Notes: generated by a model from the sequence alone, not told the origin. Numbered from the stretch's first letter, positions 1,443 through 45,914 are shown. The stretch is 52,743 nucleotides of DNA from a virus (IMGVR_UViG_3300043773_000950:1-52743); one strand, 5' to 3'. A program made the numbers and translations.

Positions 1443-1625
1443 ATGAAAACCGAAACCGCATACCAAAAAATTGATAACCTAGAAAAGCTGGGAAGAATGC
1501 TGGCGGGCAAAGAAGCCGCGCCAACCATACATGTAGACGAAGACGGATTCTACTACATAGGAGAAAGAATGTTCACTGACTTCAGGGCAGCCAAGATCGC
1601 CATAGCAAAAGACACTTGGAGGTGA
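1443..1625 (+). CDS. Hypothetical protein
   Basis: 60-aa ORF with an A-rich leader; last gene before a long non-coding stretch. Confidence 0.55.
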   Translation: MKTETAYQKIDNLEKLGRMLAGKEAAPTIHVDEDGFYYIGERMFTDFRAAKIAIAKDTWR

Positions 1626-1740
1626 TAGGGAGGTTTTTTCTCGCTGGCTAAGGGACTTTCTCTACGCTGGGCCAATCCGCCACATGGTCGCCGGGGGAGG
1701 GTGGTGCCACGGGTCGCCCTCTGTGAGAAAAGAGATTCCT

Positions 1741-1804
1741 TTGTAGCTTGTGCTACACTCTGTAGGGGAGGGGCTTTCGTTGTAGTGATGGCTACACTCT
1801 GTAG
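1741..1804. repeat. Direct repeat TTGTAG-N5-GCTACACTCTGTAG, 2 copies 39 bp apart
   Basis: Copies at 1741-1765 and 1780-1804 in a non-coding region. Confidence 0.75.
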
Positions 1805-1869
1805 TGTGTGAGAGTATCGTTGAACGATACGGGGGGCTTTTTTTCTCTCACTTATTTTCTCACAAACTA

Positions 1870-1898
1870 TTGACAAGCGGGGGGGTTGCTGGTAGTCT
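1870..1898 (+). promoter_or_regulatory. Sigma70-type promoter
   Basis: TTGACA (1870-1875), 17-bp spacer, TAGTCT (1893-1898) preceded by TGn (extended -10). Confidence 0.7.
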
Positions 1899-2076
1899 TA
1901 TGCATGAAGGTTGGAATGGATTTCCTCCCATCAATTGTTCTCTGAAAGTCTAATCGTTCACTTCATTTCCTGAACTCCGTTCCTTCGCTTGCGATCATGC
2001 AGCGGAAACAAAAACACGAATCCGTTTATCGTTACGATATTCGTTTCGGTAGTGTGAGGGTGCGGAAACGCAGGAA

Positions 2077-2790
2077 ATGAAAACGAAAACAAAAAACGCA
2101 AAACTTGAGATCGTTCGTGATGCCGCATCAATTGATGCACTGCTTACTCGGAATGATCGTGGGTATTTGAACGCAAACGCAAAGCTTGCTGATGTTCCAA
2201 CCGCCGACCTTGTGACATATGCTGTCACGAAGTTGGAAGCGGGACAGAGCGCCTTGCGCGATGCGGTCTTATTCGCTGGTGCTGTCTTTAAGACATGCAC
2301 GGAAGAAAAAGCAAAACTGTTTGCTGATGGCCTCACTGTCACTTTTGGCGGAATGTCTAAGGACATTCTCTCAATAGGACGGGCCTTGCCACAGTTTGAG
2401 GCGCGCGGCCTTTCCCTCTCAAATGTTCGCGACCTTTACGGGTTGCGTGACATTAGGAAGCTCGCCCTCGGTGAAGACAAAGCGGTTGCCGACAAAGCAA
2501 TCGCGCTTCTTAATGCTGGCAAGCCCGCACGGGTTGCGCGAAAAGAAATAATTGACGCGCAATCGCCCGCCGTTGCAATAATCGGCGCAGAAAGCAAAGC
2601 AAAGCAGGAAGCGGCGCCGCAACCAGAGCCTGCCAATCCAGAGGAGAAAGCGGAGGTGATCCGCCGCCTCTTTACTGGTTACGCGGAAAAGGTTCAAGAG
2701 TTGTTTGATCATGATGAACGCGTAAAAATCGCGCAGCAGGCCGTGGCGAAATTGAAGCTCGCGGGGTGGAGCCTGCAGAAAGTGAAGTGA
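2077..2790 (+). CDS. Hypothetical protein, monocistronic early gene
   Basis: 237-aa Ala/Lys-rich ORF between the 1870 promoter and a strong terminator. Confidence 0.8.
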   Translation: MKTKTKNAKLEIVRDAASIDALLTRNDRGYLNANAKLADVPTADLVTYAVTKLEAGQSALRDAVLFAGAVFKTCTEEKAKLFADGLTVTFGGMSKDILSIGRALPQFEARGLSLSNVRDLYGLRDIRKLALGEDKAVADKAIALLNAGKPARVARKEIIDAQSPAVAIIGAESKAKQEAAPQPEPANPEEKAEVIRRLFTGYAEKVQELFDHDERVKIAQQAVAKLKLAGWSLQKVK

Positions 2791-2793
2791 ACG

Positions 2794-2832
2794 AAAAAAT
2801 GGGGAGTGACCTTCGGGTTGCTCCCCTTTTTT
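2794..2832. terminator. Intrinsic terminator, probably bidirectional
   Basis: A-run, GGGGAGTGACC-TTCG-GGTTGCTCCCC hairpin, T-run; lies between convergent genes. Confidence 0.85.
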
Positions 2833-2859
2833 GTGCCCAGATTTTTCGGGCGTTTTGCT

Positions 2860-3462
2860 CTATGCCGTGAGTGCGGTTTGCTCTTCCTCTTCCCGGCTTT
2901 GGCTATCGGTAACGATAGCATCTTGGGGGGCGCTTTTCTCTTCCACGACTTCGATGATATGTTTTCCATTAACATATCCCATCTCATCCTTTGCTGGCGG
3001 CGTGACATGGAGCGAGATCATGGCATTCACGCTCATTGCCTTCTGATTCTGAACCTCTTGCTGATCCAATCCCAGCGTCCTCCTCGCCGTCTTGTCGAGT
3101 TCTGTGAGCAGTTCCAACCTTTCCTTTTGTTCCTTCGTTCCTGTGAGTTTCCTTCTGCCCTCAATCACCTTTCTCTCTTCCTCGATCTGTTTCAGCATAA
3201 ACCACAGATGGGCTTCACTTTCCTCTCCCATCCGGTGAATCAGCTTTTTTTCTATCTTCGCGGCGGCTTGCGTTCTGATGAGGTCGCGCTGCTTCGCCCA
3301 TCTTTCCTTAACCATCACATTCCTAAAGTAAAACGGAGACAGACCCTTGTATTGTGGGAGTTTTGTTATGTCTGCAACATCCATCCCCGCCATGTAGTGC
3401 GCCTTTATCTCTTCCCAGTTCCACTTCTTCGGCCTTCCGATGTTTTCTGGATTCCTGTCCAT
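2860..3462 (-). CDS. Putative terminase small subunit / HTH DNA-binding protein
   Basis: N-terminal GRPKK-WNWEEIKAHYMAG HTH-like pattern followed by helical/coiled-coil segments, as in many TerS proteins. Start placed at ATG 3462. Confidence 0.5.
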   Translation of the reverse strand: MDRNPENIGRPKKWNWEEIKAHYMAGMDVADITKLPQYKGLSPFYFRNVMVKERWAKQRDLIRTQAAAKIEKKLIHRMGEESEAHLWFMLKQIEEERKVIEGRRKLTGTKEQKERLELLTELDKTARRTLGLDQQEVQNQKAMSVNAMISLHVTPPAKDEMGYVNGKHIIEVVEEKSAPQDAIVTDSQSREEEEQTALTA

Positions 3463-3528
3463 GTCCGGCAAGCTACCTCGTCCACATTTTCTTGTCAACT
3501 TCCATCGCCCTCGTTCAACACAAAAGTA

Positions 3529-3557
3529 TTGACAAAAATAGTTCTTTGTGGTAGTAT
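3529..3557 (+). promoter_or_regulatory. Sigma70-type early promoter
   Basis: TTGACA (3529-3534), 17-bp spacer, TAGTAT (3552-3557) preceded by TGn; points into the early gene array. Confidence 0.75.
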
Positions 3558-3766
3558 ATTGAAAGTCGGCGGATTGGATATTCGCATCGACAATGACTCT
3601 TTGACATACTGAATGTTTTTCAGTTTCGGTTTTTCGTGTCCCCTTCCGCCTTGTTCATTTCCGGGCGGTTGGGGTAATGCGGCGCAAGTTCTCGTTAACG
3701 ATAACTTGATGCGGTGACAAGCCCGTAAAGCAAAACGCAAACGCAGAGTCACAACACACGAAAACA

Positions 3767-4039
3767 ATGGTTACAAGAAAACTACTGAAAGATCGACTTG
3801 AATACCTATTCAATGTCACTGGAGTTCGCTACGAGCTATCCTGTCAGGCTTCTGGCAATGGCAAGGGCTACTCCGTCATGCTTAACGGCTCCCATGTGAT
3901 GACCTATGGTCATGTCCCCGCGTCTGTCCTTGATGCTTGCATCACGGCATTCTCGAAGGGATTCCATCTTGCAGAAGATGGGTTCAAGCCAAGGGAAATA
4001 CTATCAGCAATCGCTGCTGGATACGGGGAGGCACAATGA
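3767..4039 (+). CDS. Hypothetical early protein
   Basis: ATG directly after the ACACACGAAAACA leader. Confidence 0.75.
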   Translation: MVTRKLLKDRLEYLFNVTGVRYELSCQASGNGKGYSVMLNGSHVMTYGHVPASVLDACITAFSKGFHLAEDGFKPREILSAIAAGYGEAQ

Positions 4040-4272
4040 CAACAGGTGAAGTAATAGAACTAAGTGGAACAATCACAATCAATTCGCCAGTTCATGGCGC
4101 AAAGTTTGTGTTTGCAAACAAGGTGCAACAGCTTGTCTACAAGCGTCTCGTTCAACGATATGGCATTGAGCCTCGCAACATCTATCAAGGATTCTGCGGG
4201 GACAATGTCGTATTCTGCGAGTGGGATCACATCACAATCGGCATTGAGGAGGATGGCTATGCACACTCGTGA
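4036..4272 (+). CDS. Hypothetical early protein
   Basis: ATGA overlap with the previous stop; ends ITIGIEEDGYAHS. Confidence 0.7.
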   Translation: MTTGEVIELSGTITINSPVHGAKFVFANKVQQLVYKRLVQRYGIEPRNIYQGFCGDNVVFCEWDHITIGIEEDGYAHS

Positions 4273-4498
4273 AGTAACATCCGACAAGGGTAGCAAATAC
4301 ATCCTCCCCGTAGTCTCCGAAGATGAGATGAAAGAGATCATGTTCGGGCTTGGATCGCCCGGATGGTGTCTTGTTTGCGGTGAGGAGGTCGACGGCGTTG
4401 AGCCAGACGCTCGCAGATATGAATGCGAGAGCTGTGGTCAGCGTCGAGTATATGGAATGGAAGAGTTGCTTATGATGAATCTTCTCATCATCGAGTAA
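4259..4498 (+). CDS. Small zinc-ribbon protein
   Basis: GWCLVCG...VEPDARRYECESCG (two CxxC pairs). Confidence 0.75.
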   Translation: MHTREVTSDKGSKYILPVVSEDEMKEIMFGLGSPGWCLVCGEEVDGVEPDARRYECESCGQRRVYGMEELLMMNLLIIE

Positions 4499-4576
4499 TT
4501 AGCCACTCTGCTCTGTTATCGTTACGATAGCAGGGCAGCAGGCTGGTTACAACCAACCAGCGAAAACACGAAACAA

Positions 4577-5176
4577 ATGAAAGATACATTACATACAGAA
4601 TCCTACAGAGGATATACAATCAATATCGTTCGCGATATCGATCCAGAAAACCCGCGTGAGTGGGACAACATTGGAACGATTGTGTGCTGGCATCGCAGAT
4701 ATAGGCTCGGTGACCCGCACAAGTTCTCAAATCCAGATGAGTTCAACGAATGGATTAGGGAGCAAGGTCAGATGATCGTCCTTCCCGTGTTTCTCTATGA
4801 TCACAGTGGGTTGGCTATTCAATGTGAGCCGTTCTCTTGTCCTTGGGACTCTGGTCAAGTCGGATACATCTATTGCTCAATTAAGCAAGCAAAGAAAGAA
4901 TTCGGCGGGACAAGTGAAGAGTTGATAGTCAAGGCAGAGTCATGGCTTCGCTCAGAAGTGGAGATATACAACAACTTCCTTCAAGGCAATGTTGTTGTAT
5001 GGACTGCGGTGAACGCCAATGGAGTAGAGTGGGATTCGTGCGGGGGATATTACCCAGACTGCGGCACGAATGGCACTCGCCAGTGGGATCAGCCCATCGA
5101 AGACGCCAAGTTGATTATTGATTCCACCATCGAGGCCGATGAGAGAAACGCCATCGATGCGTGCCTCAATATATAG
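4577..5176 (+). CDS. Conserved hypothetical phage protein
   Basis: ENPREWDN, LYDHSG and WDSGQVG motifs, which I recognise from phage/mobile-element proteins of unknown function. Confidence 0.8.
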   Translation: MKDTLHTESYRGYTINIVRDIDPENPREWDNIGTIVCWHRRYRLGDPHKFSNPDEFNEWIREQGQMIVLPVFLYDHSGLAIQCEPFSCPWDSGQVGYIYCSIKQAKKEFGGTSEELIVKAESWLRSEVEIYNNFLQGNVVVWTAVNANGVEWDSCGGYYPDCGTNGTRQWDQPIEDAKLIIDSTIEADERNAIDACLNI

Positions 5177-5256
5177 TTAGACACACCGCTTCTCGTTAAC
5201 GATAACGGGGAGCGGTAGTCTGACATACAACCATGTCGGAAACACACGAAACAAAT

Positions 5257-5934
5257 ATGTATATCATACATGAAACCAATGATTTGGTAGCCATTGCCAC
5301 GCGCAATTCTACCAATAGAAAAACAGGCAAATCAGTTCAGATATGGATTCTCGATGCACAGATGCATCCAGTAGAATCCAGAAGGTCTGGGCGTGACGCG
5401 GAGAATCAATGCAACGGATGCCCGTTCGCAAGCAACAATGGTTGCTATGTGAATGCCAATCCCATCGCATCGATCTGGCGGGCGTATCAGCGCGGCTCAT
5501 ATGAATACCTTCAGATGGGCACACGCGAGTGGTATGACTTCTTCTCCGTCCCGTTTGTGCGCTTCGGTGCTTATGGCAATCCATCCCATCTCCCACTTGA
5601 GATGGTGTATGACATTTCCAGACTCGCCACGCGTATCACGGGATATTTCCACGACTGGAACTCCATGCCAGCCGGACTCGCCAAGTCATACGGCAAGTTC
5701 TTCATGGCATCCTGTGAGCCAGAGAATGTCGAGTATGCCCGCAATCTTGGGCTTCGCACATTCACCATATCCAACGAGCGTATCGGTAACGATATCGAAT
5801 GCCTCGCGGATTCCAAGGGGCTTACTTGCGCGGAGTGTGGGCTGTGTGACGGCAACCGCCGCCGCAATAGCCTCCCATCCGTGTGGATCAATCCTCATGG
5901 TTACCAGAAGAAGAAAGCGGAGGCCGCACTATGA
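5257..5934 (+). CDS. Cys-rich protein, possibly metal/Fe-S binding (gp88-like or degenerate radical-SAM-like)
   Basis: CNGCP...CYV, VRFGAYGNP, TGYFHDW, FMASC, TCAECGLC. Start at ATG 5257 after the conserved leader. Family assignment is from memory only. Confidence 0.6.
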   Translation: MYIIHETNDLVAIATRNSTNRKTGKSVQIWILDAQMHPVESRRSGRDAENQCNGCPFASNNGCYVNANPIASIWRAYQRGSYEYLQMGTREWYDFFSVPFVRFGAYGNPSHLPLEMVYDISRLATRITGYFHDWNSMPAGLAKSYGKFFMASCEPENVEYARNLGLRTFTISNERIGNDIECLADSKGLTCAECGLCDGNRRRNSLPSVWINPHGYQKKKAEAAL

Positions 5935-6107
5935 GAGAAGTTAAACGCTACAGACCAAGCCCTCTCGCCTCATCCAAGTGGGTGGAGGAGTTCAACAACA
6001 GGCAGAATGTGGAGCTTCGCAAGGCCAAGGAAAAGTTCTCTTGGCTTGTGCTTATCCTCCTCATCAATGTCGGACTGATTGCCTTGCTTACCATTATCAA
6101 TTGGTAG
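5931..6107 (+). CDS. Small membrane protein
   Basis: ATGA overlap; C-terminal hydrophobic helix WLVLILLINVGLIALLTIINW. Confidence 0.65.
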   Translation: MREVKRYRPSPLASSKWVEEFNNRQNVELRKAKEKFSWLVLILLINVGLIALLTIINW

Positions 6108-6189
6108 CAGACACTCTGGTGTTATCGGTAAACGATAACGCCAGCAGTCTGCTTGCATGGTGCAAGTAGATAACCAAAACACGAAACAT

Positions 6190-6564
6190 ATGAATACATA
6201 CTATAAAAACGACAACGGCAACTTCATCCCCGCTGAAATCAGCTCGGAAGATGCAATCGCAATCCTCATCCAGTCGGCAGTCACCAATGCTGTCAACAAG
6301 GTCAATAACCTCATCATCAATGAAGTTATTTCCCGTGTTAGCGATGCGGTGAGTGATCAGAATATCCAAGGTAAAGTCATAGAACATCTTGGCTCAATGG
6401 ATATTCATGAGCGGGTTAACGATGCAGTATCCAATGCAATCAAAGATTACGATTACGATGGTGCAATCGACAATGCATTAGATAGCATAGACATCGACGA
6501 GATGGTCACAGAGAAAGTCACCGATCATCTCGATTCCTGCTCTATTCAAGTAAGGATCGACTAA
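6190..6564 (+). CDS. Hypothetical acidic helical protein
   Basis: Starts after AAACACGAAACAT; internal D-I-x-E-x-V-like repeats. Confidence 0.75.
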   Translation: MNTYYKNDNGNFIPAEISSEDAIAILIQSAVTNAVNKVNNLIINEVISRVSDAVSDQNIQGKVIEHLGSMDIHERVNDAVSNAIKDYDYDGAIDNALDSIDIDEMVTEKVTDHLDSCSIQVRID

Positions 6565-6645
6565 TCAGACACTCCGCTCATTATCGTTTAACGATAGTGG
6601 GCGGCAGTCTGCTTACATGGTGTATGCAGAAAACACGAAACACAA

Positions 6646-7110
6646 ATGACAAGAGAACAATACGCTGAAGGCAAGATATACGAGGAGTTTACTCCTATTG
6701 ATACATGGGAAGCAACCATCGAACATCTGAATGATGATTACTCATTCAGTTGTGTCGGCGGCCCATTTGTTGAACTGTCACCCGGTGATATGCTGTCGAA
6801 ATACGACTACGATGGATTCCAAGATTATCGTAGACGATATGTCGAGCGCATGATCCTTGAGAAGAAGTGGGCCTATGTCGGTGGAGATGTTTATGACATC
6901 GAAGCCAAGTGGTCTTACGATGGTATCCTCAACCAAGTCAAGGATTGCGATCCATACCATATCAGCGGGACAGATTCAGAAGATGGCTGGTATTACTACG
7001 ATGACAAGGCATTCTGCTGCGGGCCATTCGGCACTGAGGCGGATGCTTATGACAACGCAGTCCAACAGTATTGGAACAACCTAATGGAGGTATCATGCTG
7101 CGAAAACTAA
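6646..7110 (+). CDS. Hypothetical acidic protein
   Basis: 154-aa D/E/Y-rich ORF after a repeat unit; GWYY...GPF motif. Confidence 0.75.
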   Translation: MTREQYAEGKIYEEFTPIDTWEATIEHLNDDYSFSCVGGPFVELSPGDMLSKYDYDGFQDYRRRYVERMILEKKWAYVGGDVYDIEAKWSYDGILNQVKDCDPYHISGTDSEDGWYYYDDKAFCCGPFGTEADAYDNAVQQYWNNLMEVSCCEN

Positions 7111-7364
7111 TCACATCGCACGGCATTCCTTTCAATGTGGTTCTTGATACCACAAAGGATGAACCAATAGTCAGCTTCTACGATGCCCGCTGGAACTTCA
7201 CCGAATATGGTCAGTTCACGGGCGGGAGCTACTATGCATCAACACTCCTTGAGGATAGTCCGGGTGGACTCTTCCTCGACACAGGCACTCCAGACTGGAG
7301 GATAGATCACGCGGAGATGCGTGAAGTCCTCAATTGGCTCTCGGATTGCCTAATATCCAAGTAA
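7095..7364 (+). CDS. Hypothetical protein
   Basis: GGAGG at 7086-7090 before ATG 7095; PIVSFYDARW...GQF...YY...L pattern. Confidence 0.7.
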   Translation: MLRKLITSHGIPFNVVLDTTKDEPIVSFYDARWNFTEYGQFTGGSYYASTLLEDSPGGLFLDTGTPDWRIDHAEMREVLNWLSDCLISK

Positions 7365-7446
7365 CCAGACACTCCGTCCGTTATCGTCAACGATAGCGGG
7401 CGGAAGTCTGGTAGCATGGTGCTACTGGTAAACAACAAACACGAAA

Positions 7447-7794
7447 ATGACAAACACAAACAAAATAAACGAAGCAATAAGCAAGAAAGTATCAGAGATA
7501 GTAGATAGAGAAGCCGACGAGCTTTTCATAGCTATCTGCAATTGGTCAGAAAAGAACCCAATCAAGATTAGTCCTTACTCTGAAGATGGAAAGATATTTT
7601 CAAGGAATTATCACTCACTTGCTACTTGGCATCACCTCTCATCAAATGAAAGGGAGACATATCAACCATTTGTTGATGCTACAGTCAAGATGATGTCCAA
7701 GTGGAAGCAGGCAAGGCACAACTACCTCTTCGAGAAAGCAGCGAAAGAGATCATCGAGAGGGCAAACATATTTCTTCCAGAAAGCCTAAAGTAG
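7447..7794 (+). CDS. Hypothetical protein
   Basis: 115-aa ORF bracketed by two repeat units. Confidence 0.75.
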   Translation: MTNTNKINEAISKKVSEIVDREADELFIAICNWSEKNPIKISPYSEDGKIFSRNYHSLATWHHLSSNERETYQPFVDATVKMMSKWKQARHNYLFEKAAKEIIERANIFLPESLK

Positions 7795-7874
7795 TCAGAC
7801 ACACTCTCCCCGTGCATGCGGGGGGAGTAGTCTGATGGCATGGTGCTATCAGTAAACACAGAAAACAGAAACAT

Positions 7875-8090
7875 ATGAATGATATAGTAATAGAAACGCC
7901 AGAACAGTTCCGCTTGTATGCCCTACTCAAGCTCAAGGCCGCTCTTAAGTTAGAGTGCGCCGGAATGCGACACAGTAGAGGTCATTCGGCCTATGGGATA
8001 GTCAAGAGGTCTTACGGATTCAAAGGCAACCGCGAGTCCGTCCTCAAGCAATTCACCGATAAGATCAACGAGATGTATTCCCAACAATGA
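7875..8090 (+). CDS. Hypothetical protein
   Basis: 71-aa ORF after the last repeat unit; ALKLE..GM..SRG pattern. Confidence 0.7.
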   Translation: MNDIVIETPEQFRLYALLKLKAALKLECAGMRHSRGHSAYGIVKRSYGFKGNRESVLKQFTDKINEMYSQQ

Positions 8091-9703
8091 CACTCGACAA
8101 ATTGCTTGAAACTCTGGACTTCTGCCAGCCCATCAGAAAAGAAACCAAGGTCGGGACGCGTCTTCTTCGGAAGGCGCAACCTACCAAGGAATTCTGGGAC
8201 ACCTACAAGATCGACAAGCAGTCCTATTCCAAAGAACTCAAGAAGATTGGAATGTCAATCAATGAGTTCCGTGGTAATTGGGAAGTTGCTTGGTGGTCGA
8301 GGCCGGATTTGACATTCGCGCCCATCCCCAACTTCAAGCTGGAGATGCCGGAAGATATCGTTACCGATATTTCTTCTCTGCCTGCACTCAAGTTTCCTGA
8401 CAAATTGTTTCAATATCAGATAACTTCTGTGCAGTTGGGTGTCCGTTCGCTGGAGAAATACAACCGCGCTCTTCTTGGTCACGGCACTGGCATGGGCAAG
8501 ACGGCAATCGCCTTGGCTATCGCCCGTGAATTCGGCAAGAGGGTCGCAGTCATCTGTCCCAAGCCAATCGTCACAGACTGGCATAGGATGGCGAAATACC
8601 TCGGCGTAGAGACATACGATGTCTGTGGCTGGGAGTGGGTCAAGACGGGCAAATCCAAGATGGGTGGTTGGGTTTCCAAGGAGAAGAAGAACTTCAAATG
8701 GGAAATACCAAAAGATACTATTTTAGTATTTGATGAAGTCCATCGCGGCAAAGCATACAAGACCCAGAATGCCATCATCATCGCAGATGCGGTGCATCAA
8801 AACATCTCATCTCTCGCATTATCGGCAACGATAGCGGATGACCCAACCAAGATGTGGGCTATTGGTCAGTTCCTCGGTCTACACAAGGGGCAGGATTACT
8901 TTCCTTTCCTCTTGCGGAATGACTGCGTGAAGACTCAATGGGGCATGAAGTTCGATGGTGGACTCCATGTCTTGAGCAGGATTCACAAGCAGATATTCCC
9001 AGATCGCGGGAATAGGCTCAAGCCATCCGATGTTGGTGATGAGTTCCCAGAGACACTCATCCATGCCCGTGCATTCGACATGGATAGTGCCAAGGATATC
9101 GCGGCTGAATATGACAAGCTGCTTGTGCGTATCGAAGAGCTACGCATGCAGGAGAACTTCGCCGCTAATGTATTGGCAGAGCAGACAAGAGCAAGGCAGG
9201 CCGTCGAGCTACTCAAAGCTCCAGCGGTTTGCTCTCTCGCTCAAGACCTCATCGAAGAAGGCAATTCCGTCTTCATCGCGGTCAATTATGTCGAGACGCT
9301 CAAGTTCATGCAGAATGAACTCAAGACCAAATGCACAATCCAAGGCGGGCAGAACGAACTCCTGCGGCGAGGGAACATCGATTCCTTCCAGAACGACAAG
9401 TCGAGAGTCATCATCGGCATCACACAAGCATGCCGTGAAGGTCTTAACTTGCACGATATCAATGGAAGGTATCCACGCATCGCCTTGATCATGCCGACCT
9501 ATTCTGTCTTCGATCTCAAGCAAGTCTTGGGTCGTGTCCACAGGGCGGGCGGCAAGTCAAAGTCGATCCAATACCTCGTCTATGCTGCTGGAGTCGGCAT
9601 CGAGGAGGACATCTGCGAATCGTTAGACATGAAACTGAAAAGGATGGATCAGCTTATGGATGGCGAAATAGACGCATCCATCAGCTTGACTACATCAAAA
9701 TGA
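8087..9703 (+). CDS. SF2 (SNF2-like) helicase/ATPase
   Basis: GTGMGKT (motif I), DEVH (II), SAT (III), EGLNL (V), QVLGRVHR (VI). Confidence 0.92.
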   Translation: MTLDKLLETLDFCQPIRKETKVGTRLLRKAQPTKEFWDTYKIDKQSYSKELKKIGMSINEFRGNWEVAWWSRPDLTFAPIPNFKLEMPEDIVTDISSLPALKFPDKLFQYQITSVQLGVRSLEKYNRALLGHGTGMGKTAIALAIAREFGKRVAVICPKPIVTDWHRMAKYLGVETYDVCGWEWVKTGKSKMGGWVSKEKKNFKWEIPKDTILVFDEVHRGKAYKTQNAIIIADAVHQNISSLALSATIADDPTKMWAIGQFLGLHKGQDYFPFLLRNDCVKTQWGMKFDGGLHVLSRIHKQIFPDRGNRLKPSDVGDEFPETLIHARAFDMDSAKDIAAEYDKLLVRIEELRMQENFAANVLAEQTRARQAVELLKAPAVCSLAQDLIEEGNSVFIAVNYVETLKFMQNELKTKCTIQGGQNELLRRGNIDSFQNDKSRVIIGITQACREGLNLHDINGRYPRIALIMPTYSVFDLKQVLGRVHRAGGKSKSIQYLVYAAGVGIEEDICESLDMKLKRMDQLMDGEIDASISLTTSK

Positions 9704-9754
9704 AAAAGGGGCAGACTGTCGGTTCAACACCTTCAGTTCTGCCCCTCTTTTTTT
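9703..9754. terminator. Bidirectional intrinsic terminator
   Basis: AAAAAGGGGCAGA...TCTGCCCCTCTTTTTTT between convergent operons; a palindrome copy follows at 9754-9767. Confidence 0.75.
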
Positions 9755-9768
9755 ATCGTTGACGATAG

Positions 9769-10059
9769 TTACTCTGGCTTCGACACCTTGGCGGTCTGAC
9801 CGCTGATGTAGAATAGGAGTGCTTCCTGCAAGAGTTCGATGGCTTTAAGCCCCTCCCTCTGGCGGGTCTGCGTCTTGACGATCATGGTCGCCGCCGCGTG
9901 GAGCAGCGATGCCATGCCTTTGACCAGTTCGTTGGTCTGCTCATTCTGGATTTTCGGGTAGCTAAACTGCTCCAGTAGCCACTCCTTGATCTGGGCGGCT
10001 TGTTTCAGTTCCTCCTCCGTGTAATCGGGAGGCGTGTCGGTGTTTTTTGTTTCACTCAT
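9769..10059 (-). CDS. Hypothetical protein
   Basis: Probable start MSETK at 10059; last gene of the minus-strand operon. Confidence 0.65.
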   Translation of the reverse strand: MSETKNTDTPPDYTEEELKQAAQIKEWLLEQFSYPKIQNEQTNELVKGMASLLHAAATMIVKTQTRQREGLKAIELLQEALLFYISGQTAKVSKPE

Positions 10060-10061
10060 AA

Positions 10062-11012
10062 TTATTCTCCTTTCAGAAAGTTCATCCACTCGTTCTCTGC
10101 CGGATCAAACCAGCACTGGCTACGCAAGTCAATGACAAGCTGGTGCGGTTCGATCTCGTCTGGAACCTCCCTCACAACCTCAGAGTTGCTGAAGTTGGAG
10201 ACATTCAGTATCAAGAACCTGTGAGGAAGCTGCTTCATCGGCTCTTCCTTGCCTTGCGCCTCTCTCACTCTGCCGCGCACCTCTTGGCTCGACAAACTTT
10301 CTTTCTTTGCCGCGTCGAGAAGTGCAAGCATGTTGGGCTTCTTGAGGTCGGCATTTCCAATCTCTCTATAGACTGTGAATGGCAGCATGGGATCGCGTTC
10401 GCTATTCGGGAATGCCCTACAGGTTCTCGCGTATCCGCTCACTGTGCTGTAGTTCTTCTTGAACTGGGCGCATAGTTGATTGACCACATCTTCATGGCCC
10501 GCGTTTTCGAGTGCCACCACAGCGTCACCAATGATCCATTGGCTTCCAGACTCCAGAGTCAGGCCGAATGCGAATGCCTTGACCCAATCCTTCATGTCTA
10601 CTTTGCCCTTGGGAACGCACTGGGTGAGTCCCGCACCAAGGTCGAATGTCTTGGTGAAGCTCGATAGCTCCAAGCCATCCTTCACACACTCGACAAGCTC
10701 CAGCTTCTCGTTGTCTGGTTCTGGATTATCGTTAACGATAGGTTCGCTTTCCTTGGACTGCGACAGATCTACTGCCGCCTCATAGTCAAACGACATCTTC
10801 TCATACATCTCCGCAACTTCGTCGGCTGCGTTGTCTTCCAGATAGGTGTTCTTCTTGACCTTCTCCCAGACTTTCTTGACCAATGTCTCGTTCATCTGGA
10901 TGCCTTTCCATTCCTCGGAGGCGAACTGGAGCATGTGCTTCAGGTATGTCGCCTCGTTGACCAACTGCCCGTCATTCGTCGGGCTGAACATTTCGAGTTT
11001 ACTTTGTTTCAT
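10062..11012 (-). CDS. Putative DNA-binding protein with LmbU-like HTH region
   Basis: SQWIIGD...YSTVSGYARTCRAF...R...LPFTVYREI...LL..A....LS..EVR resembles the LmbU-family pattern (W-x-x-GD...Y-x-T-x-x-x-Y-A...F...R). Confidence 0.55.
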   Translation of the reverse strand: MKQSKLEMFSPTNDGQLVNEATYLKHMLQFASEEWKGIQMNETLVKKVWEKVKKNTYLEDNAADEVAEMYEKMSFDYEAAVDLSQSKESEPIVNDNPEPDNEKLELVECVKDGLELSSFTKTFDLGAGLTQCVPKGKVDMKDWVKAFAFGLTLESGSQWIIGDAVVALENAGHEDVVNQLCAQFKKNYSTVSGYARTCRAFPNSERDPMLPFTVYREIGNADLKKPNMLALLDAAKKESLSSQEVRGRVREAQGKEEPMKQLPHRFLILNVSNFSNSEVVREVPDEIEPHQLVIDLRSQCWFDPAENEWMNFLKGE

Positions 11013-12061: not shown

Positions 12062-12820
12062 TTACTTTGTTGGTGGTTTGTAGTTGTTTGCATGCTGCCA
12101 ATAGGCAACAACATGTTTGAACGCCTCGTATTCGGCGTTGATTGTCTCTTCTTCATACCAAGCCTCGCCAATTCGGCCCGGCTCAGTGGTGCTGATATAC
12201 AGGTTAACGCCACGGGGAGCGCCGACAATCTTGGCATACGCCGCAATCTGCATCGGCTCCTTTGACCATGGAGTCACCTTGTATTCTGGTTTAGTCTTCC
12301 TCGACTTGTAGTCCAGCACATGCAAGACTCCGTCAGCCTCAATCAAGGCGTCAGTTGTCCCAGCATAGCCAAGTTCCTGATTCACTAACCGCAGTTCGTG
12401 CTTTAGGAACTTTACATTGTGTTTTGCCGCCCATTCCTTCACGGGGGAAACATAACTTTCCATTTCTGGAGCGTATGGTAGCCCTTGGAAGTGGTTCTCC
12501 AGCGCCTTGTGGATGCTGGTTCCCAGATCGGCGGCATCTGTTACTTGCTGGAACGCGTCCTCCATAACCCGCGCACAGTAGTCCTCATCAGACTCGTCTG
12601 GGTTGCGGGGGAGCGTCAGACTCGCAAGCAACACTTGCTGCTGCTTCCACTTGTCCAGTTCCGGTGCCGCCAGAACCTTCATTATCGTCGTGACTGATGG
12701 GTAAAGACCAAGGGTCTTACAGTCTTTGAGTGTCGTAGGACGCATGCCGCCCTTCGACTTGTTTGGCACCTCAAAGACGGCTGTCCCATCCGCCGCGTAG
12801 TAGTGACCGGACTCCTTCAT
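12062..12820 (-). CDS. PD-(D/E)XK exonuclease
   Basis: YPSVTTI, GTSIH, YAGTTD, LDYKS and QIAAY motifs. Confidence 0.88.
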   Translation of the reverse strand: MKESGHYYAADGTAVFEVPNKSKGGMRPTTLKDCKTLGLYPSVTTIMKVLAAPELDKWKQQQVLLASLTLPRNPDESDEDYCARVMEDAFQQVTDAADLGTSIHKALENHFQGLPYAPEMESYVSPVKEWAAKHNVKFLKHELRLVNQELGYAGTTDALIEADGVLHVLDYKSRKTKPEYKVTPWSKEPMQIAAYAKIVGAPRGVNLYISTTEPGRIGEAWYEEETINAEYEAFKHVVAYWQHANNYKPPTK

Positions 12821-13005
12821 TTCTCGTAAACAGAGGAGACAATCTCTGCTACTCCACGAAGGTGTCTGGCTATCTTCGCAGCCTCGTCCCCGTTCTTGAG
12901 TTCACCAAGAGCGAAGACTCCACTGTTTGCTGTTGCTTCCACAAGACGGAGAAAAATCTCCTCTTGCATGTCCTGCTTTACTGTCGGTTTGGTTTTTTCT
13001 GGCAT
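12817..13005 (-). CDS. Hypothetical protein
   Basis: 62-aa ORF overlapping the exonuclease start. Confidence 0.6.
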   Translation of the reverse strand: MPEKTKPTVKQDMQEEIFLRLVEATANSGVFALGELKNGDEAAKIARHLRGVAEIVSSVYEK

Positions 13006-13041: not shown

Positions 13042-13171
13042 CACTTTTGTCTATTATCGTTAACGATAGTGGGGAGGCCATTTTACCGACCTCCCCACTC
13101 AACACATATGAACAAATACAACGAAACAAAGAAACGCTCTTTGCTGCGGAAACTCTACCACTCTTTGATTG

Positions 13172-16100
13172 CTATTCAAACGGAATTTCCTTGTCCATCT
13201 GAAGCTGGGATTTTACTCCCCTTCTGATCTCTCCAAGGTTGTTGGCTAAGTATTCCTGTGCCTCTTCTGTCGGGAGTTCATCGAGAGTGTCGGCATTGTC
13301 GATGACCCACTCCTTCATCAGCGGGCCAGCAATGCGGACAAACTCTCTCTGCTCTGCCAGCGTCATCCTCACACCACTGCTCCACTCAAGGCTACCCTGC
13401 CACTTGGGCGGGATGAGTCCGTTCCTGTAGAGGACGGAGAACGCTGGGTCGGGTGTCTCGCTGGATGCAATTCTTCCCACAAGTGACAATGCCCTGCGAC
13501 CCGGCCCGTTCTCTACCATGATAGAGTTGTATCTGACTGGGTCGCCAAAGTAGCCGAGTTTCTTGTCGAGGAAGAATGAGCTTCCGGGCATCTCGCGGAT
13601 TAGGTTTGATAGCCTTGTGTCCCCTTCCAGCTTCTCGTCTGTGATTGTCTTCTGGAAGTCACGCAGGATACCCGGAACAGCGAGACGGGAGATAATATTG
13701 GTCGCGATTCTTGTGGCATCCTTCGGTAAGTCTCTCGCCTCTTTGAGTTCGATGAGATCAGCCACACCAGTAAGGAATGACTGGTCGAGGGCGGCAACGA
13801 ATCCGATGGCAAATGGAGCGGCGATGACTGTTAGGGCTGCATCTGTAATCTCAATCGGCTGCTTCTCCTGCTTCTCTCTATACCTTTTTACGGCATCTGC
13901 GAACATCGATCCGGCTGCAATCGGAATAACGAGCGGCGTGTAGAGATAGGAAACATACTTGTCCCCCACCCTGATAGAGTAATTAGACCCGCCGTTCTCT
14001 CTCCAAATCTTATTCTGCTCTGGGTCTGCTGGCCCAGTAGCGTAGAACTGGACTGGCGGTCTGCTCTCTTGATCCTCGTCATCTCCACCAAGGAGTGCTG
14101 TAACTATGGCTGGTAAAGCGAAGGCTGCTGTTCCAATCATCCCCTTGATTGCGATATCTGCCGCCTTTTCTTCCCTACCAAGGATGAATGGACTCTTCTC
14201 CGCTCCGGGCTTGAGTTCGATCTTACCGCGAAGTAGCGGACTTAATTTGACATATGGCGCAAGCCTCGCCGCGCTGACATACGGGAGATAGTTGAGGTTC
14301 TCGTTAAGAACATTCGCCACGACATTGGTGAAAGGAATGAATAGCTGCGTGATCGGGCTGACCTGAAGTAGCTTATTACCAAGGCTTGCGATGAATCCTA
14401 CGACTCCAACTGGTTCCTGTGAATAAACGCTCTCCAGCGCATCTCTTTCGGCATCGATTCGCTTCTGATCTCCAAGCCTCTGCTTTGCATATATCTCATT
14501 TGCGCGGATGATGACTTCTCTTTCCTTCAGCTTGCCGCGAGATTTACTGGATGCGAGTTCAGCCTCTGCCTGCCTCTTCGCTGCCTCGTAGGCATCGACC
14601 TCAAAATCCTTCGCGCCGAATGACGCTGCCCTAACTTCATAAGCAGCCTCTCGCATGAAGGCATCTGTTGCCCGCATGATGCGCATCAGACCCCTCGGAC
14701 TGACAGTAGTGAGGACTGAGTTCAGCCACCTCGGAATCGCTTCGATCTTCCCGTCACCATAGGTTGTGAGTCCATAGACAAACTTGGGCGTGTTCTCTGG
14801 GTTTGCACCCTCAAGCACATTGAGCTTCGGATACTTCATCAACTTGTCATCTTGGATGCCTGACGGGTTTAATCCTGTCTGCATGACATAGGCGAACGAG
14901 TTCCTCGACGGGGCTTCCTTACGGATCGTTGCTGAATAAAGTGCGCGGAGCATCGGCCCGGTTGCTTTCCCCTTCGTGTAGATAGACCAGACAGCCATGT
15001 TACCAAGGAGGTTGAAGGTGCTGCCAAGGAAGTTGACTGCCTGCGTTCCGACCTGTGAGAGGAGCGCGAAATACCAGTAGCTTGAGAAGTAGTCTCTGGT
15101 TGTGAAGCCTTGCTTCTGTAGCAAGAACCTTCCCATTTTCTGCTCTTCGATGGCGCGGGTGACTCCTTCCGGCAGCGCGGATATCCTATCGCCCCATTCG
15201 CGAAGTATCTGGGCGAACTCTGGACTCCACTCAAGATATCCTTCTTGGAAGTTGTGTGTCTGGCGGAATGCTTCGTAGACTCCAAGGTCATCAAGCTGGC
15301 CCATGTTAGCCATCTCCATCAGCCTCTGGAGGAGTGTTCTCTGATTGGCCTTTGGCTTAATGTTGTTCTGTGAGAGTTTTTCCTGCGCCCGCTGGATCGC
15401 CTGTTCCAAGTTGATTGATCGCTGCGCCTGCACGGCCTTCGTCATCTCGCTCTCGATCAGTTTAGAGAGTTCGTTCGATGTCTTCTCGTCAAAGCCAAGT
15501 TCAAGGATGATGAGTTCGTTCAGCTTGTCCACGAATGCGCGGTAGTCGCTTGCCGCGAGTTTGGTGAGTCCCTTGAGCGTGGTAGCCAGCTTGAACCGCT
15601 CTTCCGCAGTAGCGACCTTCTTCATCGCCTCCTTCTCGATCTTGCCTCCGGTGATCTTTCCAGTCTCCTTGTTCACCTCGAAACCAAGACTCTTCTTCAC
15701 CCGCTTGGCAGTCTCCTCATCCAAGTAGGCTTGCGTCTCGGAGATAAACTTCTCTACTTGCTCATCCGTTGCTCCTACTCCTTTGAGTTCCGCCTTGATG
15801 TGGGCGGTCACCGCAGCCTGCGCGGCATATCTATTCTCCCCGATGTAGGTGATCAGGTCGCTAAACTTGTATTCAAGGAAATCAGCGGAATCCTTGATCG
15901 CTTGGTTCCGCATGGCATCGCTCCATTGCCTGTCCGCAAGCATCGAGAAGAGTTCCTTGTAGTCATTCTCAAACTCCCTCTTGTCGCTATACTGCTCACC
16001 GATCTTCTTCTTTAGCTCCGCGATGAATAGCTTGTAGTCATTATCGTTACCGATAACCGACTTCACTTGAGCGAGGAACTTGCCTTCCCGCTTCTTCTTC

Positions 16101-19100
16101 ACCTTCTCCTTGGCGGGTTTACCCTTCTCCTCGATCTCCCTAGCGGTCTGTTTAGCCACAGCGGAGAATGCCTGATAGACATACTTGTAGACATCGTCTG
16201 GAGAGAATCCCTTCCTTGCCGCGCCGATGGACATGATCGCCTTCGCAGTCTCATCCACCATCATGTTGGCATACTTGTCCCCGCCCAGATCGAATATTGA
16301 GGCACAGAACTCAAGGACGATCTCACGCGCCTTGCGGGTCTTCTTCTTGGCTACTGCCTTTCTGATAGCATCCGCAGCGGCCTGCGGGTTCTTCTCAGCG
16401 ATCTTCCTCAGTTCCGTAATGCGGGAGATGACTCCTTTGAGGGCGAATACATTGTCGATAGCCTGCCTCCTGTCTCCACGGACAGCTTCCGCTACCTCCG
16501 TGAAGTTTCCTTTCACGATTGTGTAGAGGTCGGCAAGTGATGCCACAACTCTCGACTTGTATGCAGCCACCGCTGTTCCTGCGGAGCCAATCTGCCTCAC
16601 GGTCTTTGCTGCGTTGAGTGTCCTCGCGCTGCCTTGCTGCTGATCGACAATCAGCTTCGCAAGATTCGCCTCCACATCCAGAGAGTTAAGTGCGATAGAC
16701 TCACGATCCTTGGCTGACGCGGAGGAATCCATGATCTGTTCCCTATAGGCTGGCATCAGCTTGTAGATCATCGGAGTGATGCTGGCGATCTCCGACTGCG
16801 AGAGGTTGAATCTGTTCAGTCCATTTCCAATATCGGAAGCCACAGAGAAGAAGTCCGCATCTGGATTGTTCTTGAATATCTTGGTCAGCGCCTTCGCTGC
16901 CTCTTCTGAGGTGTTGCTGGTATAGAGATTCACTCCCAGCGAGTATGGAGAAACAAGTGCTGCCGGATATGTCTTCCCCTTCTTGGTTGTCCGCGAGACA
17001 TATTCCTTCCCTGCACGGGAGCGGCGGGGCTTGATCTGCTCGATCATCCCCTCAATCTGGCTGACCATATCATCCGTCAGTTTTCTATGAACTGATGCGG
17101 CCCTTGGTTGTGCTGCTCTTGGGGCAGCTTCTGGTGTAGGTTCAATTCCAGACCTTGCTATGATTGTTGTTGATGGATCGAATCTCATTGAGAGCGGGAC
17201 TAATGCCCCCTCTTTGAACTGCCCAGAAGTCACCATCGGGTCTTCTTTGTCGAAGAATGTGAATGGGTCGGCGGACTTGATTTGCTCTGGCTCAAAGACA
17301 ACATAGATGTCTTCCGGCAAGAACCTTCCCTTGAGAATTGCGTCAAGTCTTCCTGTCTCTCCAGCATCGTAGGTGTTTTTGAATATCGCCCCATCTCGGC
17401 CTTCCTCTTTCGCCTTCTTCAAAAGGTTGTTGTATGACTCTTCGCGATAAACGGAACCCTTGAAGTCTTTGACGAGAGGATTGTTGAGTGAAAGGTAAAC
17501 TTCATATCTCTGAGGAAGCGGCTGCTCATCGAGTTCTTTTGACATCCTTTCGATGTCTGCCCTCATCCTTTCCGTATCTTTTAATATTCTCTCTCTGGCT
17601 TCTGGGAAGCTCTCTGCAAGTTCTTCTGTTCTCCTGAGGATGTCTTTGTATTCACTGATAATCTTTGCATTCTTTTTCCTAAGATTTTCACTTTCCTTCT
17701 TTGTATAAAGGAAGTTACCAGCATACATGTAGAACTCTGCCGTCTTCTTTCTTGTTGTGAAGAAGAAGCCCTTCTTTGCAGATGGCGCACCCGTTGCGAG
17801 TCCAAGTTTTTCCTTCAAGAAGGATGTGAATTTACTTTCAGATGTGGCGCTACCATGAAACAGTCTTGGCGAATTATACCCAGCGGCCCTTGCTGCCGCG
17901 TCTACCATTTTCTGCGCTTCTGCCTCGGCTTTCTTGTCTCCGCGAAGTGCGGCTTCGTAGAGGCCAACAAAGCGATCATTCATCTGCGGAGTCACTCCCG
18001 CCCGCGCCGTTATCGTTGACGATACTGGCTCTGCGGCGGGTTCTGTAACAGCTTCTGCCTCCGGTTCTGTCGTTACAGCGGCTTCCGGTGCCGCTGCTCT
18101 GGTTGGCTGCGCGGCACTGTAGTCCTTAAACTCATAGTTCGCCTCCCCGCCGACGATGCCATACTCGTCCAAGATTCCGTTGATGGTATCTTCCATCTTC
18201 TTGACTTCCCGCGTCGAGGTTCCTTTGCCAAGGTATCTGACAAGGGAATTGCGTAGCATCTGGAGGGCATTGAGGATGGCATTCTTGAACTGTGAGATCG
18301 CCGTCCTGCTCTTGTCTGTGAATGCTTCTCTCTCTGCTGCGCGGATTGCGTTCAAGTCTTCCGTGATCTGCCCAGTCCTCACGCGCTGGATCACCATACG
18401 CATGAATTCCATTGAGAGCGTCACATCGTCCAAGTTCTGTATCTTACCAAGATACACCTGTGAAACATTCGGGACTACATCAGGGTTCGTCCTTCTGACT
18501 TCCCTCGCGATCTGCGTGATCCGCTGAACCATGAACTCCTGCTCGGTGAGTTTGGGCTTCTTCTGCTTGGCGTATTCCTCTTGGATGGCCTTATACATCG
18601 AGAGGTGGATCATCTCCTCCTCCAGCTTCTTGGAAGCAGCCCGCGACTCTTGGTCGAGTGCGGCATCCTTGCTTGCAGCCCGCTTCTCTCCCTTGATAGC
18701 CGCATCCTTGAGTTGATTCACATCAGGAAGAACCAAGTAGAGCTTCCCTCCAGAGTAGGCTGCCATGTATGTTCCACTATCTGCGGTTACTGGCTTGCGC
18801 CCGGATATTCTGGCAAACTCTTCCGAACTGACAACATTCGCCCCTATTCCGGCGAGGAATCCAGCGTTCTTAGTGATGCCAGTTCTAATAGCATTCTTGA
18901 GCTTCTGTGCGCGTTTACCAACCGCCTTGATTCCCTTGAGTGCCTTGTCTGCTTGTTTGACGAATGCATTGAGTATCGGCCTCTCTGGATAGAATGTGCC
19001 ATAAGGATATTCCCTGCCCGATGGTGGCCTCGCAGCCGCCCGTGTCGGCGTTGTGGCTTGAGGTTCGATTCCCTGCTCAACAGCAGTAAGCGCGGCGAGT

Positions 19101-24832: not shown

Positions 24833-24847
24833 TATCGTTACCGATAA

Positions 24848-34121: not shown

Positions 34122-34235
34122 TCATGTGATCGACTGCGGTTGTGGTTTATCGTTACCGATAATTATAGTGATGTTCAGATACCGCTCGTAGTTCAGAGCG
34201 TCCCAGTTCTTATCTGATGTGCAGGCGAGGCTCAT
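34122..34235 (-). CDS. Possible 37-aa ORF or gene remnant
   Basis: MSLACTSDKNWDALNYERY...; ATGA overlap with the upstream stop; weakly resembles the N-terminus of 36685-36960. Confidence 0.35.
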   Translation of the reverse strand: MSLACTSDKNWDALNYERYLNITIIIGNDKPQPQSIT

Positions 34236-45098: not shown

Positions 45099-45142
45099 AA
45101 AAGACCCGCCCAATTGCGCATTGTTAAGAGGCGGGGCGGGGC
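45098..45142 (-). terminator. Intrinsic terminator closing the minus-strand ncRNA region
   Basis: Minus strand GCCCCGCCC...GGGCGGGTC followed by TTTTT. Confidence 0.55.
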
Positions 45143-45689: not shown

Positions 45690-45914
45690 CTATTCTAGGA
45701 CACCTTCTAGTTCAAGCGCATTCGCTAGTTCCTCTTGCACCGTGATGAGTGCGTAGGTGTAGCCCTCGCTCGTCTTCTCGATAGGCTCGATTTTGCGAAT
45801 GTTCTCTTTCTGTATCCAGCAGTCGTTGTAGTCCTGCATGAAGCGCAGTTTGTTTGGTTTATCGTCAACGATAAATCCTCTGCATGTGACTAAGCTCTCA
45901 AACTTTGTATTCAT
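45690..45914 (-). CDS. Hypothetical protein
   Basis: 74-aa ORF overlapping the HNH gene. Confidence 0.65.
   Translation of the reverse strand: MNTKFESLVTCRGFIVDDKPNKLRFMQDYNDCWIQKENIRKIEPIEKTSEGYTYALITVQEELANALELEGVLE

Follow-up and report, generated by a model that had tools for sequence, protein, structure and literature searches.

Phages exchange small early and accessory genes and yet keep them expressed, and how they do so is an old question; to our knowledge, the PeSLs of T4-type phages and tandem hammerhead ribozymes are the few worked examples of such swapping. Phage T7 offers a related arrangement, in which RNase III processing hairpins separate the early genes on one polycistronic RNA driven by a host promoter. 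Here we describe the early region of a freshwater phage represented by the DNA IMGVR_UViG_3300043773_000950 (the window, analysed at its full length of 52,743 nt; coordinates without a contig handle refer to it), in which six structured units of about 80 nt separate small genes. These units are a previously undescribed RNA element that is absent from Rfam. Judged by analogy, they may work like both the early processing sites of T7 and the PeSL linkers, yet they fail two defining features of PeSLs. With slightly better than even confidence, we regard them as an intercistronic RNA processing and insulation module with a standard leader, which doubles as a recombination homology patch inside one operon headed by a twister-type ribozyme candidate. 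The case is compact and well supported, combining an RNA family new to Rfam with 18 covarying pairs, a single operon and a candidate ribozyme at its head, and lake metagenomes contain natural variants (deletions, insertions and allele swaps) whose junctions lie in the element. It opens two questions, namely whether intercistronic RNA modules process and insulate cassettes and whether the same modules are recombination joints.

Several repeated elements with related placement have been reported. According to the accounts of the motif in two studies of T4-type phages, PeSLs are composite motifs of about 100 nt that run from a stop codon to the next ATG and flank variable small open reading frames (ORFs); each joins a terminator stem-loop to a strong sigma-70 promoter, so that every cassette is its own transcription unit, and insertions, deletions and replacements of ORFs arise through recombination between motifs (PMC2839356, PMC4122927). 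In Cluster K mycobacteriophages, the short repeat SAS and its extended form precede the start codons of non-structural genes, often behind inverted repeats; SAS is conserved across subclusters and contains a Shine-Dalgarno core, its function is given as unknown, and the authors, where they treat the inverted repeats, see little support for RNA hairpins in them (PMC3203893). The repeat section of a study of Cluster O mycobacteriophages describes 17-bp dyad repeats, present at more than 20-30 copies per genome, with invariant arms, a fixed spacer and a variable centre, which lie both between and within genes without clear orientation; they too are of unknown function, and a dimeric DNA-binding protein is predicted (PMC4351075). 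Among self-cleaving RNAs, tandem hammerheads occur in the polycistronic RNAs of prophages, and a hammerhead lies at the mapped 5' end of an early transcript of halovirus HF2, as summarized in one source (PMC3088659).

A Covarying RNA Element Between Early Genes

Six copies of the element lie on the plus strand of the window, at 4500-4582, 5178-5260, 6108-6189, 6566-6649, 7366-7448 and 7796-7872 (units 1 to 6), scoring 65.2, 67.7, 77.3, 93.8, 88.4 and 58.4 bits, respectively, under a covariance model built from 37 copies. A preliminary description of this DNA had placed six units at these positions, and all six were recovered: each begins with YAGMCAC 0-1 nt past a stop codon and ends at the next ATG. 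The layout given there (YAGAC, AC bulge, variable stem, palindrome, AGTCTG, second hairpin, leader) likewise reads as described, the order across copies being a 5-bp base, the AC bulge, a variable stem, an apical palindrome, AGKCUG, hairpin 2 and an A-rich leader with ACACGAAA before the ATG. Unit 1 has the base TAGCC/GGCTG and the hairpin-2 loop ACAACC, and the apex of unit 6 is another palindrome, TATCG/CGATA being absent from it.

In total, 38 distinct copies were gathered by pattern from the window and 12 loci reached via the neighbouring helicase gene (59-100% identical), and 37 of them, from the window and 10 related viral contigs, were aligned; the omitted copy, L123:815-896, is the same as unit 3 of the window except for one or two bases. 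In this MAFFT alignment, which was not fitted to the structure, a 24-pair structure is paired in 93.6% of 846 cells versus 22-50% with slid partners. Changes on both sides are seen in 18 of the 24 pairs, and none of 500 shuffles reached the observed covariation, which agrees with the proposal that the stems differ in sequence while keeping their pairing. RNAalifold assigns 16 pairs to hairpin 1, 11 of them with compensatory changes. The 630 hairpin 1 cells comprise 551 Watson-Crick and 76 G-U pairs and not a single A-C; it follows that the fold belongs to the sense strand, as had been read from the G-T pairs in favour of a plus-strand RNA structure, although the asymmetry is compatible with RNA and single-stranded DNA alike. 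RNAfold z-scores of the six units range from -3.8 to -6.6, with none of 200 shuffles equally stable, and the predicted folds, all between cistrons, reach -31 to -37 kcal/mol.

The element is restricted to this array. On the window, the covariance model returned exactly six plus-strand matches (58-94 bits), and scores on the reverse strand stayed at or below 32 bits. Searching viral contigs with such a model had been recommended in the preliminary description, and 49 plus-strand matches (55-94 bits) appeared in 11 of 13 related sources, each upstream of the helicase gene, and 23 further sources added two copies, both in one relative. The model found no match in 696 kb from 80 unrelated viral loci, those listed among at least 120 that carry the bare pattern CAGACAC-N-CAGTCTG. 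This pattern was accordingly too loose as a unit finder, and so was AGTCTG-N-AACACGAAA, whose loci (at least 118) are mostly chance occurrences with two true relatives among them. No Rfam family matched the units over 3400-8200 even at E <= 1, and blastn of the same interval against 50,697 phage records gave zero matches. Units are absent from L130 and L131, two relatives with 59% helicase identity, and from a genome with 77% terminase identity. A different motif, AACCCTCCGCAGCGG, is repeated between the early genes of the most distant helicase relatives, as seen at L131:2100-3600.

Competing Pairings and a Uniform Leader

Hairpin 1 spans about 20-22 bp, comprising the 5-bp base, an internal loop of 2-3 by 1-2 nt and an upper stem of 13-16 bp; the base and the AC/A internal loop are fixed in sequence, and the middle stem varies with its pairing kept. 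Hairpin 2 (6-9 bp) competes with hairpin 1 for the invariant CUG of AGKCUG, which has two partners, namely the 5' CAG in the base of hairpin 1 or a [C/U][A/G]G triplet 3' of hairpin 2. The three pairs of the latter are formed in 30/30, 35/35 and 37/37 cells, with variation only of the kinds UG/UA and GC/GU. Minimum-energy folding leaves the base of hairpin 1 complete in units 2, 3 and 5; in units 1, 4 and 6, hairpin 2 grows into the shared CUG or its G at the cost of that base. Hairpin 2 occurs with three apex types, each with a conserved loop sequence, one of which is the palindrome relocated from hairpin 1. The leader that follows is A-rich, unstructured and free of a Shine-Dalgarno site, and ends at the ATG; unit-led genes have it in place of such a site, and the internal genes of cassettes (4036, 4259, 5931 and 7095) have GGAGG-type sites.

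In this anatomy the units come close to the T7 processing sites. Both systems have a single early RNA from a host promoter with intercistronic hairpins of about two helical turns and a small internal loop, and the defining structure of the T7 sites, an RNA duplex of about 20 bp that is interrupted by a small internal loop and separates cistrons on a single transcript, is present in the units; the proposed outcome, separate messages with hairpin-protected ends, would also be alike. The units differ in having a second hairpin that shares three bases with the first, an invariant base and a fixed leader that lacks a Shine-Dalgarno site, and they are unrelated to the T7 sites in sequence. They share with SAS, as far as that repeat is described, the recurrence just upstream of start codons, but their leader lacks the Shine-Dalgarno core and their pairing is strongly supported.

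The invariant base and loop argue for a specific reader, whether protein or RNA, and against a nuclease that acts on any double strand, and two further readings are kept for this reason, one involving a protein and the other a new ribozyme (considered with the head element below). According to the former, the units would be RNA operators for a phage-made RNA-binding protein and would never be cut, so that they set the yield of each cassette's first gene; this protein might repress or activate translation or act in antitermination, and it would recognize the conserved loops together with the invariant base and the AC/A loop. The invariance of unpaired and base positions amid covarying stems, the three apex types of hairpin 2 with their conserved loops and the missing Shine-Dalgarno sites of unit-led genes all speak for such an operator. 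A possible reader is the CxxC...CxxC zinc-ribbon protein encoded at 4259-4498 in the conserved head block of the operon, whose nearest named clusters include a Com-like zinc ribbon (0.88, 13% share), which serves as a lead only. Nevertheless, none of 54 proteins scanned has an RNA-binding domain at the Pfam threshold, a simple operator would need neither a hairpin of about 20 bp nor a place right after stop codons, and the same transcript already carries a ribozyme candidate, with an unrelated phage filling the same slots with ribozymes. We consider the operator reading unlikely.

A Single Early Operon

We interpret the region from 3529 to at least 9703 as a single early operon transcribed from one host-type promoter. 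This promoter, at 3529-3557 on the plus strand (TTGACA, 17 nt, TAGTAT, with TG preceding the second hexamer), is the only strong sigma-70-like site (10/12 matches) in 1600-10200, an interval that holds 3 promoter-like sites versus 10.2 expected from shuffles. Promoter and terminator scans of this interval found no site inside any unit, no T-run follows either hairpin of the units, and the downstream genes of the array, including the conserved helicase gene, show no promoter of their own in the scan. The comparison with stem-loop cassettes of T4-like phages that the preliminary description had drawn holds in one respect and fails in another. Like PeSLs in their published descriptions, the units run from stop to ATG, and the ORFs flanking them are gained, lost and replaced by exchange between motifs; unlike PeSLs, they carry neither promoter nor terminator, lie inside one operon behind a single promoter and have stems that covary as RNA. 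The same negative results bear on the idea that the units, as stable intercistronic hairpins, attenuate or pause transcription and so produce a gradient of expression along the operon: with neither T-runs nor terminators in the units, and with no separate promoter for the helicase and the other downstream genes, this is barely credible despite the predicted stability of the folds.

The promoter and its leader of about 210 nt are kept in eight relatives. Within the leader, a 22-nt block at 3617-3638 (plus strand) is invariant in 8/8 aligned relatives and holds the complement of ACACGAAA. The ACACGAAA leader motif precedes seven start codons, and its 7-8-nt complementarity with 3617-3638 is not significant alone. 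A minus-strand gene using the complement of ACACGAAA at 3632-3640 was rejected because the short ORF is not kept in relatives. If the twister candidate downstream cuts, the invariant block would be freed on a fragment of about 110 nt, as estimated from the promoter position.

Cassette Genes and Their Exchange

The array is framed by conserved genes, all on the plus strand, with a head block of three overlapping small genes (3767-4498, comprising 3767-4039, 4036-4272 and 4259-4498) at one end and, at the other, a 71-aa gene followed with an ATGA overlap by a 538-aa helicase gene (phrog_62; 7875-9703). On the same strand between them lie a variable cassette with a 199-aa gene (4577-5176; phrog_6186, function unknown), a cassette with a 225-aa gene (phrog_2554; DUF7227 below the Pfam cut-off) and a 58-aa gene at 5931-6107 with a GGAGG site (5257-6107 together), a cassette with a 124-aa gene (6190-6564), one with a 154-aa gene and an 89-aa gene with a GGAGG site (6646-7364) and one with a 115-aa gene (7447-7794). 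Host takeover or anti-defence had been suggested as their role, which family searches do not bear out: a scan of 10 array proteins gave no match at a Pfam cut-off, and the three PHROG matches are all to families of unknown function, the 58-aa gene lying outside these family-library scans.

Cassette content differs between relatives and between lake populations. Relatives gain, lose and swap genes at the units, several junctions falling in the units' conserved segments, and the portability ascribed to the unit is evident in cassettes of 1-2 genes that change at units both in relatives and in lake contigs. The gene families between units and the order of cassettes differ among 10 relatives; thus unit 1 is followed by the 199-aa gene in the window and elsewhere by a two-gene cassette, a 53-aa gene, other singletons or nothing, and the two-gene cassette of this position (F15-F16) lies two positions further down in the relative L123. 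The types of hairpin 1, the types of hairpin 2 and the families of the flanking genes occur in different combinations from one relative to another. L123 is about 98% identical to the window elsewhere and has another allele of the gene between units 3 and 4; the other allele of this 124-aa gene is also found between the same two units in lake contigs. L123 further carries a 708-bp insertion at the hairpin 1/hairpin 2 junction of unit 4, flanked by a 14-nt direct repeat, and in L123 and lake run X6 the insertion at unit 4 amounts to an extra two-gene cassette with a new hairpin 1.

Internal ends of BLAST segments fall in units +-10 nt in 171 of 558 cases versus 59 expected from coverage, the pairs not being independent. 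In contigs of four lake runs, 5 of 12 population joints have both ends in a unit or no more than 15 nt away. They comprise a deletion of the 199-aa cassette that runs from leader to leader, with 13 letters in common (X2), another form of this deletion (X2, short side), a deletion from unit 2 to unit 4 (X4, short side), an allele swap (X2 and X6) and an insertion of the L123 type (X6). Insertions of 1-2 nt in the apical loop of unit 1 also occur among lake contigs. No integrase or other recombinase family was found among 61 ORFs scanned, 54 against Pfam and 7 more against PHROGs only, out of 70-odd (73 automatic ORFs plus the hand-split array genes) of which about a dozen small ones lay outside the scans. 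A PD-(D/E)XK exonuclease gene at 12062-12820 (minus strand) is counted in favour of the recombination part of the preferred reading.

A Genome-Wide Palindrome

The apical palindrome, which the preliminary description had treated as a feature of the unit, is a separate genome-wide signal that is not specific to units. TATCG-N3-5-CGATA has 32 sites in the window, about half of them inside ORFs and in all three frames, and the 14-mer with a 4-nt centre occurs 20-29 times per genome in five relatives versus 0-1 for a reversed control. Across six genomes the centre measures 4 nt at 144 sites and 3 or 5 nt at 11. Of 68 aligned orthologous positions, 47 retain a palindrome with a changing centre, and the centre shows a symmetric preference (T/G, T/A, A/T, A/C). 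Fixed spacing and symmetric centre preference suggest that it is the binding site of a dimeric DNA-binding protein; among 20 small proteins scanned, none reaches the Pfam cut-off for a helix-turn-helix or similar domain. Individual sites include 13055-13068, 24833-24846, 27161-27174, 44990-45003 and 48353-48366; copies at 24833, 29778 and 42820 abut start codons, and those at 34148 and 36670 follow TATAAT. A higher frequency of A-rich centres on the sense strand was not used, since the sites share descent and strand composition was not separated.

The palindrome taken by itself resembles the Cluster O repeats, as these are described, in copy number, fixed spacing, variable centre and placement. 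It differs in its arms of 5-6 bp with a 4-nt centre versus arms of 7 bp with 3 nt, in its sequence and in the phage group, and it also caps RNA hairpins, being built into the unit apices and the loop of the twister P3 stem. It represents a second example of unexplained dyad repeats after those of Cluster O mycobacteriophages, in another phage group.

A wholly DNA-based role of the units, as folded single-strand or cruciform sites of the attC kind or as binding sites of the palindrome protein with the RNA fold as a by-product, is highly improbable. Its appeal lies in the facts that the apex of hairpin 1 is a motif conserved genome-wide, within genes and in all frames, that cassettes do change at units and that folded single-stranded DNA also tolerates G-T pairs. 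Moreover, integron attC sites, with which the units had been compared, are likewise imperfect inverted repeats 3' of promoterless cassettes arrayed behind one promoter. The analogy lacks support, however, in view of the absence of any integrase or other recombinase among the ORFs scanned, the sense-strand asymmetry of the pairing and junctions that look homologous rather than site-specific, sharing 13-14 nt as expected of homologous exchange. The units also relax the 4-nt centre to which the DNA motif keeps (among 33 unit copies the centre is 5 nt in 14 and 3 nt in 1), and unit 6 and several relatives swap the palindrome for another apex with the fold retained.

A Twister-Type Ribozyme Candidate at the Head of the Operon

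A seventh, more divergent unit had been proposed at 3679-3766. This element does share the palindrome and the leader with the six units, but it goes undetected by the covariance model, has a z-score of -1.2 and aligns to a twister core. The single match in a permissive Rfam scan of 3400-8200 is twister-P1 at 3671-3754 (plus strand), a candidate of type P1 with P1 unpaired in the cmscan alignment, which scores 22.2 bits against a gathering threshold of 67.2 (E 0.26 over 4.8 kb and 0.011 over 201 nt). The alignment keeps the core bases UAA, GC, CGGU..CAAGCCCG, AAA and GAG and predicts a cut at U3675/A3676. Stems P2 (UGCG/CGCA) and P4 (CGG/CCG) are present and invariant among copies, so covariation is silent about them; P3 (CAAGUU/AACUUG) has the palindrome in its loop, the P4 loop contains CAAGCC and the junction is A-rich. 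As judged by eye, GAC in L4 can form the pseudoknot T1 with GUC after GAG, a compensatory change relative to the consensus CCC with GGG, pseudoknots not being scored by the covariance model; GC is present on both sides of T2. P1 is not formed, GGGG standing opposite ACAA, and a 10-nt insertion follows P4 at the optional P5 position.

A pattern of two core blocks occurs at 23 viral loci, representing 19 distinct copies, and the other phage copies have a P1 of the CCCUU/AAGGG type. Fifteen aligned phage copies share 34 invariant columns, which include a third core block on the 3' side that lay outside the search pattern, and the 34 core bases of 3671-3754 are identical to those of twisters with a normal P1 from unrelated phages, which score 36.9-51.9 bits, also below threshold (E 7e-5 to 3e-9). 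P1 has been reported as dispensable for twister cleavage in two studies (PMC5408937, PMC11662667). Because the core is kept, the copies in unrelated phages score higher and P1 is reportedly dispensable, 3671-3754 is filed as a probable new and diverged member of the twister class.

An unrelated phage, L164, offers an instructive parallel. It carries three twister-P5 ribozymes above the Rfam threshold (43.6-53.7 bits, at 7456-7515, 8477-8538 and 8854-8915 of L164) and, by eye, a fourth, sub-threshold copy at about 7880-7950, and each twister lies directly past a stop codon and is followed by a conserved leader and an ATG. Their T1 triplets are GGC with GCC or GUC. No protein similarity was found between L164 and 12 array proteins, the upstream 237-aa protein or the helicase. 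One such twister-P5 is also present in L154. Together with the published hammerheads, the L164 array indicates that other phages fill the units' slot with self-cleaving RNAs. As far as these ribozymes have been described, the units resemble them in being structured RNAs that recur along an operon of small genes, each immediately behind a stop codon and ahead of a conserved leader, and in having a ribozyme, here a candidate, at the head of the early transcript; they differ in that the six units lack any known ribozyme core, the head element alone aligning to twister. Hammerhead, hairpin-ribozyme and twister cores inside the six units were rejected by eye, and the cmscan results at E <= 1 agree.

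These parallels lend some weight to the view that the units are a new class of self-cleaving ribozyme, possibly derived from a circularly permuted twister, that would cut the operon RNA without protein. Ribozymes are usually recognized by just such a combination of covarying stems and unpaired bases that do not vary, the operon itself has a twister-type core at its head, and the topology of the units is that of the type-P5 twisters of L164: a strand, a small loop, a closed hairpin, a small loop, the return strand and a second hairpin. Set against this, no ribozyme family in Rfam matches them, their internal loop offers just 2-3 by 1-2 bases, the twister core is wholly absent, and inspection by eye found no loop-to-loop complementarity common to the hairpin-2 classes. 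We hold this view to be very doubtful. A broader proposal, that the units are a new class of self-cleaving or translation-sensing RNA in which translation of the preceding cassette sets the state of each joint, strikes us as quite unlikely. The 5-bp base of hairpin 1 would open when a ribosome halts at the neighbouring stop codon, and the shared CUG would pass to hairpin 2. If this were true, then, taken together with the head twister and the twister arrays elsewhere, insulation by ribozyme-type elements would be a rule by which phage early operons are generally built, and it would have a natural counterpart in the ribozyme insulators of synthetic biology.

Proposed Mechanism

In the preferred reading of processing and insulation combined with exchange, cleavage, the enzyme, the refolding of hairpin 2 and a translational role are inferred. 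Hairpin 1 would be cut by an endonuclease, for which a double-strand-specific host enzyme of the RNase III kind is the likeliest candidate and the RNA itself a less likely one, and the upstream message would then end in a protective hairpin. With the CUG freed, hairpin 2 could form all 9 of its base pairs at the new 5' end, and each cassette would thereby start with an identical leader, whatever precedes it. The fixed segments, being direct repeats (YAGMCAC; AGKCUG with the first bases of hairpin 2; the leader), may at the same time act as short homology patches at which cassettes are deleted, inserted and exchanged by ordinary homologous recombination.

Several observations weigh against this reading. 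Processing is pure inference: no transcript end, cleavage product or RNA read was seen, and none of the 20 metagenome runs with near-identical DNA is on record as RNA. The sequence invariance of the hairpin 1 base and AC/A loop is easier to reconcile with a sequence-specific protein or a catalytic core than with RNase III, an enzyme guided more by shape than by sequence, and a cut by RNase III presupposes a host that has this enzyme. The twister candidate falls well short of its threshold (22.2 versus 67.2 bits) and lacks P1. With regard to exchange, the expectation that breakpoints of gene gain and loss would fall in units is partly borne out by the excess of BLAST segment ends and by five joints, but the remaining 7 of 12 population joints fall away from units, within genes or in the head block; moreover, the likeness applied in calling joints was 90%, and in two of them a side is short, as can also arise from DNA of other organisms. 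The DNA of the F15-F16 cassette is only about 55-60% identical between its two positions, as read from a three-way alignment, so its move is old rather than recent. Finally, stem types are position-specific and stable across relatives, indicating that recombination among the units of one genome is too infrequent to homogenize them.

Genome Context and Additional Observations

The IMG/VR record is complete according to CheckV (100%) and linear, with a G+C content of 49%. Near-identical DNA occurs in 20 metagenome runs of lake, freshwater, aquatic and subsurface origin from 17 studies, one of them possibly the source sample. Recognizable genes outside the array include those for a dCMP deaminase (942-1331), a terminase (43296-45098), an HNH endonuclease (45898-46218, minus strand), an O-like replication initiator (47126-47938) and a DnaB-type helicase (47944-49176), together with a tail-collar protein and an amidase; the majority of the remaining window proteins have no family match. 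An ORF of 2,644 aa at 13172-21106 (minus strand) contains an ART-PolyVal ADP-ribosyltransferase domain, of a type seen in polyvalent proteins of phages and plasmids, and three palindrome copies lie inside it.

The sole match to a genome contig, L135 (G005:C3, 51,842 bp), belongs to a metagenome-assembled genome labelled Candidatus Woesearchaeota, which was not accepted as evidence of the host. The L135 terminase is 77% identical to that of the window, the contig lacks units, and it carries 20/20 palindromes of its 800-kb assembly; this confinement led us to take L135 as a phage contig of the same clade and not as archaeal DNA.

At gathering thresholds, the single Rfam match in the whole window is an abiF RNA motif at 45104-45140 (minus strand), distant from the array and directly past the terminase gene (44.4 bits against a threshold of 37). 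Ahead of the gene at 12817-13005, the segment 12980-13110 (minus strand) shows a G+C-rich hairpin, then a palindrome copy and then a promoter-like TTGACA-17-TATCTT; the latter ends 8 nt before the ATG, so that the message of this gene may be nearly leaderless.

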